A stretch of 15,016 nucleotides of DNA, taken from assembly GCA_016186325.1 (NCBI GenBank), contig JACPLW010000013.1:1-15016 (forward strand), in the 5' to 3' direction. The position numbers and the translations under genes were made by a program. Positions 13,241-13,386 of this stretch are shown here, one piece after another. The stretch's first letter is position 1; every line of letters begins with the position of its first letter. Origin of the DNA: Parcubacteria group bacterium (GTDB lineage: Bacteria; Patescibacteriota; Minisyncoccia; UBA10092). Below the pieces are notes generated by a model that had not been told where the DNA came from, ran no database searches, and saw nothing but the letters and a program-made list of their open reading frames with translations.

Positions 13241-13386
13241 AATAATTGCAAATAAATTATTTTCCGAAGCTTATGAAAGCGTTTTAGCATGGTCCCCGCC
13301 ATGGCGGGGTAAAACGCTTTCATCGGACAGCGAGTCCCGCGCTGGCGGGATGAGAGCGCGAGGAAAATAGTTTATTTGCAATTATT
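13241..13386. repeat. 146-bp panhandle element with 25-bp terminal inverted repeats (MITE-like, or a structured RNA)
   Basis: Terminal inverted repeats match 24/25 bp: aataattgcaaataaattattttcc at 13241-13265 and ggaaaatagtttatttgcaattatt at 13362-13386. The core is GC-rich. It holds a nested hairpin, with outer arms atgaaagcgtttta (13273-13286) / taaaacgctttcat (13310-13323) enclosing the perfect palindrome ccccgccatggcgggg (13294-13309). A second hairpin tcccgcgctggcggga lies at 13335-13350. Confidence 0.55.

Follow-up and report, generated by a model that had tools for sequence, protein, structure and literature searches.

An apparently undescribed family of structured intergenic repeats in Parcubacteria-type groundwater bacteria, represented by a 146-bp panhandle element

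The subject of this work is a 146-bp panhandle element, the two ends of which are inverted repeats of each other, located at positions 13241-13386 of a 15,016-nucleotide stretch of DNA (contig JACPLW010000013.1, positions 1 to 15,016, of assembly GCA_016186325.1; referred to below as the window) from a bacterium of the Parcubacteria group. The genes neighboring the element are all on the - strand and they occur in the order PD-(D/E)XK nuclease (13701-14456), a small open reading frame (ORF), the element, the gene for a methylpurine-DNA glycosylase (MPG), an MVP-like ORF, SecD, and SecF. The panhandle nearly fills the 164-nt spacer between the stop codon of the small ORF (13397) and the start of the glycosylase gene (13232). 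The MVP-like ORF (836 aa; 10097-12607, - strand) matches the Pfam families MVP_shoulder (1e-26) and Vault_3 (6e-11), and it begins 634 bp away from the element, beyond the MPG gene, in agreement with the distance of about 630 bp given in the original prediction for this DNA. In that prediction, which was made from the sequence alone, the element was viewed either as a MITE (miniature inverted-repeat transposable element) or as a structured RNA reminiscent of the vault RNA panhandle. A Pfam domain search revealed no recombinase genes in the window, a scan of the window for tRNA and tmRNA genes was negative, and a simple consensus scan detected no promoter- or terminator-like sites within 13241-13386 on either strand.

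The arms of the element, 13241-13265 (AATAATTGCAAATAAATTATTTTCC) and 13362-13386, are each 25 nt long, are separated by 96 nt, and are complementary at 24 of 25 positions (96%), the single mismatch being a T·G on the + strand (T13257 with G13370). Between them is found a perfect 14-bp inverted repeat (13273-13286 / 13310-13323), which encloses a perfect 16-nt palindrome, CCCCGCCATGGCGGGG (13294-13309), and a second hairpin, TCCCGCGCTGGCGGGA, is present at 13335-13350. The complementary arms bracketing a GC-rich core, and the two perfect hairpins with one nested inside the 14-bp repeat, were all located as the original prediction had described them. The G+C content is 18% in the arms and 59% in the core, compared with 41% for the window as a whole. 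No shuffle of the window gave two matches to the arm at three or fewer mismatches, and the calculated folding energy of the panhandle (-74.1 kcal/mol) is far below that of shuffled sequences (-38.1 ± 3.8), corresponding to z-scores of -9.4 for the + strand and -10.1 for the - strand.

When copies from different sites are compared, the element is seen to consist of a 108-nt G+C-rich core bounded by TTTTCC...GGAAAA, the sequence of which is near-invariant across loci and genomes (its apparent conservation being inflated in the vicinity of an exact 19-mer of the core by which the copies were selected), and of arms that differ. In the predicted fold the core is a three-way junction, comprised of helix P2 with a GCAUGGU bulge and a fast-changing tip, and helix P3, which contains tandem G·A pairs as well as a GCUG loop. 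An A/U-rich closing stem (P1) of ~24 bp holds the junction together; the inner 12-16 nt of this stem are sub-family-specific, and its outer ~10 nt vary by locus and are always paired. With TTTTCC counted in, the median arm length is 24 bp, and most arms measure 19-30 bp, even for arms of unrelated sequence. In + strand orientation the consensus reads arm - UUUUCC - GAAGCUU - AUGAAAGCGUUUUA - GCAUGGU - variable hairpin - UAAAACGCUUUCAU - CGGACA - P3, i.e., (G/A)(C/U)-GA-stem-GCUG-stem-GA-(G/A)N - GCGCGA - GGAAAA - arm. The coordinates of these parts are provided in Table 1.

The exact core 19-mer is present in at least 82 stretches of metagenome contigs, mostly from groundwater data sets, and about 80 of these are clear homologues at other loci among the matches listed, which answers the question raised with the original prediction of whether copies exist elsewhere. 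A covariance model (R1) built from 53 distinct copies scored 73 complete, untruncated matches among the 19-mer loci listed, at 142-179 bits, and it also identified further copies that lack the 19-mer (in the contigs designated L058, at 9262; L039, at 3699; and L101, at 3785). Several contigs hold two or three copies of the family. The spacing is about one copy per 40-100 kb in the carrier contigs, a value biased by the finding of these contigs through the element, and extrapolation from the density in these partial contigs suggests at least on the order of ten copies per genome. A scan of species-representative genomes with a 20-nt arm gave 22 matches, all of them single-arm chance matches except one (L009); such an arm is a poor probe, as the arms differ between loci. 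The exception is found in the Parcubacteria metagenome-assembled genome (MAG) JACPHB01, and it matches the window exactly over 53 nt that take in the entire 25-nt arm along with the P2 stem and the bulge. This copy is situated downstream of a PilB-type gene, at a locus not orthologous to the window, and its P2 tip differs yet stays self-complementary. In five samples, short-read contigs encoding the neighboring proteins of the window all end inside the element, at 13270-13280 from the glycosylase side and at 13321 in the sole contig that reaches it from the opposite side. An assembly graph with k=31 would branch at 13279/13280 and at 13321, where contigs do end, if other copies have AAATAAATTATTTTCC... 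in common on one side and ...GGCGGGA on the other.

Searches of other collections provided no relatives. In viral contigs a 21-mer had 0 matches and an 18-mer had 4, none of which fitted the covariance model, and a blastn search (distant mode) of phage and plasmid collections was without a match. The Rfam search that had been proposed together with the original prediction also identified no family: Rfam 15 gave no gathering-score match in the window, and at E <= 10 only noise was obtained for the element. A literature search found no paper describing such repeats or structured RNAs in the Candidate Phyla Radiation (CPR), Parcubacteria or Patescibacteria, which is not proof of absence. Hence, we describe these sequences as an apparently undescribed family of ~150-bp intergenic repeats in the chromosomes of Parcubacteria-type groundwater bacteria.

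The conservation of the fold was examined by means of pairing tests on a sequence-based MAFFT alignment that was fitted to no structure. RNAalifold predicted 51 pairs, 30 of which exhibit compensatory double changes. Standard pairs account for 96.5% of the cells, versus 81.5% in column shuffles (0/500 of which reached the observed value) and 42-50% when the partners were slid, and 340 cells were changed on both sides, versus 92 in the shuffles; the alignment includes orthologues, and the cells in these counts are not independent events. Covariation is seen in 17 of the 22 pairs of the closing stem (one column, for example, has AU 24, UA 18, CG 2, and GC 1 times), in all six pairs of the P2 tip and in six of seven pairs of P3. 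The P2 lower stem varies in divergent relatives: two compensated pairs are present in L034 (6971-7130), and in L101 (3785-3943) the whole stem is swapped for an unrelated 9-bp helix, the GCAUGGU bulge being untouched in both. Outside of TTTTCC/GGAAAA, the arms are kept as a base-paired stem and not as a sequence. Based upon these sequence comparisons, numerous compensating mutations have kept the panhandle fold intact, and the part of the original prediction which envisaged a structured single strand is strongly supported by covariation in every helix that varies. Pairing of the GCUG loop of P3 with an upstream CAGC was also considered, and it was rejected, as the two do not covary, the upstream sequence being variable and the loop constant.

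The alignment also provides information on which of the two strands is folded. A G·U pair on one strand corresponds to A·C on the opposite strand, and G·U was observed in 89 cells versus 20 for A·C; in the locus-specific outer arms the numbers were 25 and 5, respectively, over ~20 loci and many columns. The tandem 5'-GA-3'/5'-GA-3' motifs in P3 and in the junction become U·C/C·U on the other strand and are sensible on the + strand only. Additionally, the + strand folds more stably than the other in 52 of 53 copies, by a mean of 6.8 kcal/mol. Cytosine deamination, a known source of strand bias on the sense or leading strand, would be expected to give a sign opposite to that of the observed G·U excess. 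The strand asymmetry tracks the orientation of the core and not that of the neighboring genes, and the G·U excess is alike in sense and antisense loci; a mutational origin of the excess was rejected on these grounds. The best reading of these patterns is that the selected form would be a single strand, corresponding to the + strand of the window.

The element described here (family 1) has sister families (2-4) of the same architecture, in which a G+C-rich core is enclosed by an AT-rich stem no shorter than 18 bp; they are found in the same contigs and often abut family-1 copies (Table 1). Families 2 and 3 contain a GCAUGGU-like bulge (GCAUGGU or GCACGGU in family 2, and GCUGGU in family 3), a GCUGG-type loop and G·A-rich helices, and only insignificant matches to Rfam were obtained for them at permissive E-values. 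At one orthologous site, family 4 sits in the same arms as a family-1 copy. A census of panhandles in 584 kb identified 59 distinct ones, all within these few families. In L032, L039, L086, and L095 the copies form mosaic clusters, which are BIME-like.

Table 1. Parts of the panhandle element, adjoining genes, and copies of the sister families. Positions refer to the window or, for the sister families, to the contig named.
Feature	Position	Strand	Description and basis
P1 closing stem, 5' strand	13241-13265	+	25 nt, AT-rich; TTTTCC (13260-13265) is the near-invariant inner end, outer part locus- or sub-family-specific; alignment A2 columns 10-32 with 164-186 (double-sided changes in 17/22 pairs) and arm-length survey
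Junction strand GAAGCTT	13266-13272	+	G13266-A13267 opposite G13360-A13361, possible tandem G·A
2-bp helix within junction	G13269-C13270 with G13358-C13359	+	Covaries (A2 pairs 36-161 and 37-160; CG to UA in L040 and L109)
P2 lower stem, 5' strand (ATGAAAGCGTTTTA)	13273-13286	+	No variation inside the family; fully covarying in divergent relatives
P2 asymmetric 7-nt bulge GCATGGT	13287-13293	+	5' side of P2; A2 columns 53-59 invariant or near-invariant
P2 tip, variable G+C-rich hairpin	13294-13309	+	Here CCCCGCCATGGCGGGG, elsewhere other hairpins of 15-18 nt or 40-50 nt; A2 columns 61-66 / 103-108, both-sided changes in 6/6 pairs
P2 lower stem, 3' strand (TAAAACGCTTTCAT)	13310-13323	+	Inverted repeat and predicted alignment fold
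Junction strand CGGACA	13324-13329	+	Unpaired, conserved; near-invariant A2 columns
P3 hairpin	13330-13355	+	Basal 13330·13355 a non-standard G·A in the window copy; 13331-13354 is C-G
P3 tandem G·A/A·G	13332-13333 with 13352-13353	+	Above the two basal pairs
P3 7-bp stem and loop	13334-13340 with 13345-13351; loop 13341-13344	+	Conserved GCTG loop; 6/7 counted pairs changed on both sides
Junction strand GCGCGA	13356-13361	+	3' partner of 13266-13270
P1 closing stem, 3' strand (GGAAAATAGTTTATTTGCAATTATT)	13362-13386	+	G13370 wobbles with T13257
Methylpurine-DNA glycosylase (MPG) gene	12720-13232	-	Pfam Pur_DNA_glyco 3.9e-53; start codon 8 nt from left arm
Small ORF	13397-13699	-	100 aa in public assemblies; weak DUF4258 match; stop codon 10 nt from right arm
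Sister family 2	L087 2622-2779; L055 13423-13581; L110 12363-12538; L095 6126-6281; L039 3877-4032; L079 4712-4865		
Sister family 3	L086 5014-5170; L032 1447-1639		
Sister family 4	L055 6205-6325; L048 6238-6344; L065 277-358; L107 1008-1103		

The genes that neighbor the different copies are of the housekeeping type, and include those for GroES-GroEL, NusB-RNase III, PolA, a PilB-type ATPase, RpiB, UDG, MiaA, ThrRS, L3, ScpA, and Asp/Lys-tRNA synthetase. No transposase was found among the 20 neighbor proteins tested, all of which are housekeeping or unassigned proteins. The only recurrent uncharacterized neighbor is an HTH-like protein of 199 aa, found at six loci; as a candidate partner of the element it was rejected, since the shared flanks and neighbors of these loci indicate that they appear to be one orthologous locus. 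Both neighbors could be resolved for 29 copies, and of these 17 lie between co-directional genes with the + strand of the element antisense to them, seven lie between co-directional genes in the sense orientation, five are between convergent genes, and none are between divergent genes. When 25 long loci were scored by the strand that carries most of their coding sequence, 18 copies were antisense and seven sense; the ORF calls in the element-bearing loci that underlie these numbers are crude. The copies occupy short spacers, and the distance from the core to an ORF is often less than the length of an arm, so that in many cases the outer arm extends into the beginning or end of a neighboring gene, over its first or last codons.

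At orthologous sites whose flanks are 75-87% identical, a copy with the same arms is usually retained. Differences between such sites were also observed. The site filled in L107 is empty in L056, where its two genes overlap, and that filled in L044 is empty in L105. L055 has, at an orthologous site, the same arms around an unrelated G+C-rich core. In three orthologous pairs, viz. L054/L087 (upstream of polA), L059/L108 (nusB-rnc), and L051/L047, the element is flipped relative to its flanks: in one orientation 123-139 of the 145-147 element positions align, and the flanks can be aligned in the opposite orientation only. In the control pair L106/L048 the element is not flipped. The P2 and P3 tips differ both among orthologues and among copies from the same contig, in all combinations. 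The search for target-site duplications, by which the MITE interpretation was to be checked, showed nothing beyond chance: direct repeats of 2 nt or longer flank 6 of 53 copies, versus ~7.4 expected from mismatched flanks, and none is longer than 4 nt.

The sister contig L053, the proteins of which are 65-80% identical to those of the window and syntenic with them, is informative in regard to the locus itself. It contains a homologue of the small ORF without the element, and there the small ORF directly adjoins SecD. Because of this arrangement, the block made up of the element, the MPG gene, and the MVP gene (9927-13396) is an indel, one edge of which is formed by the element, and the MVP homologue is accessory in this genome. 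The absence at this locus in a sister genome, for which the original prediction had suggested a search, is thus found for the whole block. L053 has a family-1 copy at another site, and at the same intergenic site in the window (5100-5150) only a plain AT-rich palindrome is present. This palindrome has perfect 14-bp arms, ATATCGATATCGGA and TCCGATATCGATAT, round a further palindromic center.

Taking these observations together, we lean towards the view that the element is a resident copy of an interspersed, non-coding, structure-constrained repeat family, which is REPIN/ERIC-like, and also BIME-like, in its behavior. This reading is placed first because of its close match to the published behavior of REPINs (PMC3116915), and the sequences are best treated as a new family, or super-family, among structured interspersed repeats, outside all of the named ones. 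According to this proposal, the unit under selection would be the single-stranded fold of the + strand, and the invariant bulge, the loops, and the G·A-rich junction most likely form a recognition surface for a protein encoded elsewhere, which may be a dedicated binding protein or else an enzyme of the transposase or recombinase kind that makes no target duplication. Through the closing stem the two ends would be brought together, and the flips could arise when the arms recombine or when a template switch occurs between them. Read-through transcription would place a very stable hairpin with a duplex of ~24 bp into the operon mRNA, where, speculatively, RNase III cleavage, changes in mRNA stability, and partial termination may be expected as its effects.

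REPINs form a hairpin in single-stranded DNA or mRNA, show frequent compensatory changes, form clusters through insertion beside existing copies, and are served by a transposase acting in trans (PMC3116915). Their enzyme is encoded by a single-copy gene elsewhere, and the persistence of the repeats is vertical and long-term (PMC3116915). The panhandle resembles REPINs in being an extragenic, multi-copy, non-coding sequence of ~100-150 bp, in having a predicted fold (for REPINs a hairpin, or alternatively a "clover", in single-stranded DNA or mRNA), and in its conserved modules, compensated pairing, lack of target-site duplication, long residence, and clusters beside other copies. The absence of target-site duplications is compatible with a REPIN-like reading because such a mechanism makes none. 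The differences are also substantial. The repetitive extragenic palindromic (REP) sequence carries a GTAG or CGTC tag at one end (PMC3733652), whereas the panhandle is without such a tag, and no RAYT/Y1 gene was seen in 596 kb by a regular-expression search that is a weak test. The strands of P2, P3 and the junction are not mutual reverse complements, only the arms being inverted repeats; the panhandle is conserved centrally and variable, or covarying, terminally; its copies number tens and not hundreds; and the host is a CPR bacterium.

The ERIC, Correia (CREE), RUP, and BOX families are MITE-like structured repeats of bacteria that are transcribed along with the adjacent genes; they are 100-160 bp in length, possess terminal inverted repeats, form long, stable RNA stem-loops, are often located at the 3' ends of genes or in operons in either orientation, and are reported to affect mRNA stability (PMC3184786). 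The panhandle is similar to them in its size, its terminal inverted repeats, its long stable stem, and its placement in operons. [quoted passage not shown] Further, the panhandle is predicted to be a three-way junction with a conserved bulge and loop, and not a simple imperfect palindrome. The inverted terminal repeats of parvoviruses, including adeno-associated virus, are T-shaped hairpins of ~125-145 nt which occur in flip and flop forms at the termini of linear single-stranded DNA genomes and are made by hairpin-primed replication. The likeness of the panhandle to these, i.e., a long stem with two inner hairpins and an asymmetric center found in both orientations, is architectural only, as the panhandle is an internal chromosomal element present in dozens of copies. 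Inversions of hairpin loops are also known from plastid DNA.

A number of observations weigh against the REPIN/ERIC-like reading. No candidate enzyme was found, and a crude regular expression for the N-terminal motif of Y1/HUH proteins, a weak test, had no matches in 596 kb of flanking DNA. Gains, losses, and flips were seen only between genomes with flank divergence of 15-25%, and no presence/absence difference was seen among near-identical genomes; recent mobility is not demonstrated, because all of the changes lie between diverged genomes. The core is near-invariant at orthologous sites despite the divergence of the flanks, and the tips are not homogenized within one contig. This pattern looks like purifying selection on each copy, and a host function fits it at least as well as selfish DNA does. 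Moreover, the favored strand is antisense to the neighboring genes in ~70% of the loci, a bias which this reading does not account for and which is predicted neither by a model of a co-transcribed RNA nor by the model of lagging-strand single-stranded DNA known for IS608. Lastly, the core does not consist of two REPs in inverted arrangement, and GTAG, CTAC, CGTC, and GACG are all absent from 13241-13386.

Some of these points bear upon a different explanation, that the sequences constitute a functional structured RNA family, acting as a small RNA in trans or as an mRNA element in cis, of which the three-way core would be the functional part and the ~24-bp A/U-rich stem an RNase III-type processing stalk, which would release or insulate the core from polycistronic transcripts. 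We regard this explanation as possible, if on the whole rather doubtful. It agrees with the strong covariation in every varying helix and with the conserved nucleotides of the bulge, loop, and junction; tandem G·A pairs and an excess of G·U are typical of RNA, the copies lie within operons and are probably transcribed, and neither target-site duplications nor a transposase were seen. It accounts better than the REPIN/ERIC-like reading for the fixed length of a stem that is held at ~24 bp despite unrelated arms, and it better explains the purifying selection by which an invariant core would be retained at orthologous sites while the flanks diverge. However, it agrees poorly with a favored strand that is antisense in ~70% of the loci and that is flipped between orthologous loci without visible consequence, and the consensus scan of the window found no promoter- or terminator-like site in or beside the element. 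The locus-specific flanks imply that no shared promoter outside of the arms is possible, the mosaic clusters, like the orthologous sites that are empty, are characteristic of repeats and not of RNA genes, and no Rfam family was matched. A bolder and more doubtful suggestion is that the family and its sisters might represent a new structured RNA class specific for Parcubacteria or CPR bacteria, present in dozens of copies per genome set, which would be cut from read-through transcripts at the A/U stem and bound by a dedicated protein through the invariant GCAUGGU bulge, the GCUG loop, and the G·A-rich junction, or that the same fold in single-stranded DNA might be the substrate of an as yet undescribed transposition or recombination system that makes no target-site duplication. 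If the suggestion of an RNA class is true, it would be a bacterial counterpart of the multi-copy RNAs of ribonucleoproteins.

We consider it very unlikely that the element is a classical MITE, i.e., a deletion derivative of an insertion sequence with a DDE transposase, with the 25-bp terminal inverted repeats serving for its cut-and-paste movement. MITEs are defined by terminal inverted repeats together with target duplications (PMC3184786). The element fits the description of bacterial MITEs (PMC3184786) in being small, non-coding, multi-copy, intergenic, and stably folded with terminal inverted repeats, a consensus arm, (G)AAATAATAAATAAATTATTTTCC, of 23-25 nt is common to at least 10 distinct loci, and the arm of the window recurs in L009. 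But the arm boundaries show direct repeats no more often than the mismatched-flank controls do; beyond 6 nt the arms are not conserved in sequence, many loci having unrelated complementary arms that covary; the core is far more conserved than the ends, the reverse of what is seen in a MITE; and no parent insertion sequence or transposase was seen in 596 kb of partial contigs. Of the original MITE interpretation, the multi-copy, non-coding, interspersed nature of the element, the presence/absence differences, and the recurrence of the arm in L009 have stood, whereas the target-site duplications are missing and the terminal repeats covary. Even less probable is an inverton, in which the glycosylase and MVP genes would be under the control of a promoter or terminator that an invertase flips. 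The inverted repeats do lie immediately upstream of a gene and both orientations exist at three orthologous loci, but the window contains no recombinase and the element no promoter-like site, the public contigs from five samples all carry the window orientation at both junctions, the flips are found only between diverged genomes, and, with a similar fold on both strands, little would be changed by flipping; in addition, the ~80 copies adjoin unrelated genes.

The suggestion that the element encodes a panhandle RNA of the vault or Y RNA type, known from eukaryotes and bacteria, which would partner the MVP homologue 634 bp away, is one to which we give scarcely any credence. A transcript of the element would, like these RNAs, be ~100-150 nt long (~146 nt here) and have a long terminal stem formed by its 5' and 3' ends, there is an MVP-like gene nearby, and the element, MPG, and MVP are present or absent as one block relative to L053. 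In contrast to vault and Y RNAs, however, the panhandle is multi-copy and lies beside many unrelated genes in both orientations, with no own promoter or terminator found, and it does not co-occur with MVP at the other loci examined: no MVP or MPG homologue is encoded in the other ~80 element-bearing loci listed (~0.6 Mb). L053, with a family copy elsewhere, lacks an MVP gene at the syntenic site, and in 14.7 kb of this contig neither MVP nor MPG has a homologue; the Rfam families Vault and Y_RNA are absent even at E <= 10. The link to vault RNA that was proposed with the original prediction is hence unsupported. The box A and box B elements of RNA polymerase III promoters are a criterion that is inapplicable in bacteria. 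Practically negligible, finally, is the null interpretation of a single-copy terminator or promoter palindrome specific to this locus: the element does lie between co-directional genes, and its arms are A-rich at the 5' and U-rich at the 3' end, but this interpretation is refuted by the ~80 homologues with conserved structure at other loci, and the consensus scan found no terminator-like site.

A number of specific identities were also considered and rejected. An intrinsic terminator, i.e., a G+C-rich hairpin followed by a U run, had no consensus match within 13241-13386 on either strand. A CRISPR array, which the original prediction had itself dismissed, is rightly set aside, as it would require three or more near-identical direct repeats with unique spacers of similar length, and only two degenerate hairpin units of 14 nt are present, 86% alike and 41 nt apart (Rfam CRISPR-DR10, E = 1.4). 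Upon inspection, the junction strands do not fit the core of the hammerhead ribozyme, and no ribozyme family appeared in the Rfam output; the GAA/GA internal loop likewise does not match, by inspection, the K-turn consensus as generally known. An integron attC site was rejected, as the R'/R'' core sites (GTTRRRY) are lacking and the neighbors are housekeeping genes, not cassettes.

The CPR or Patescibacteria make up a large uncultivated share of bacterial diversity and have tiny genomes with very short spacers, and tens of copies of several structured elements of 150 bp are unexpected in genomes so compact. The conservation of the core, which exceeds that of adjacent essential genes, points to a protein partner or an RNA function in organisms whose biology is known largely by inference. 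The family would explain recurring contig breaks in short-read assemblies of such genomes, and the covariance model is ready for use in annotating MAGs. The stems, which are locus-specific yet always paired, and the flips at orthologous sites constitute a natural data set on the maintenance of long inverted repeats. The location of the panhandle beside a bacterial MVP homologue is no evidence for a bacterial vault RNA.

Some other features of the window were noted in the course of this work. A small-RNA-like unit is present at 14586-14765 on the + strand, consisting of a near-consensus promoter (TTGACA, 16 nt, TG, TATACT), a predicted G+C-rich transcript of ~140 nt whose fold has a z-score of -3.3, and, at 14735-14758, a strong terminator followed by a T run; Rfam provided no match for it. 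The same promoter occurs in L035 (1426-1479) before a different structured transcript of ~100 nt that is predicted to have its own terminator. Public short-read contigs of the window organism (L001-L007, from several samples) also break near 14543-14548, just upstream of this unit, which suggests repeated or variable sequence there. A 26-nt inverted repeat (6387-6412 / 6475-6500; 85% complementary, 62 nt apart) is located in the spacer upstream of a 414-aa ORF, and the covariance model does not assign it to the family. Amid housekeeping genes, a homologue of VirD4/TraG-type coupling proteins with a C-terminal treble-clef zinc finger is encoded at 3434-5197 (- strand), and it is 71% identical in L053. 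Between this gene and the convergent EF-P gene lies an imperfect palindrome of ~70 nt (3357-3426) centered on CCGATCGG. By eye, the long P2 tips of ~10 family-1 copies are made up of similar hairpins centered on CCGATCGG, though no significant match to them was obtained with blastn-short. The palindrome is 97% identical over 72 nt in L053/L111, and the flanking proteins are only 70-80% identical.

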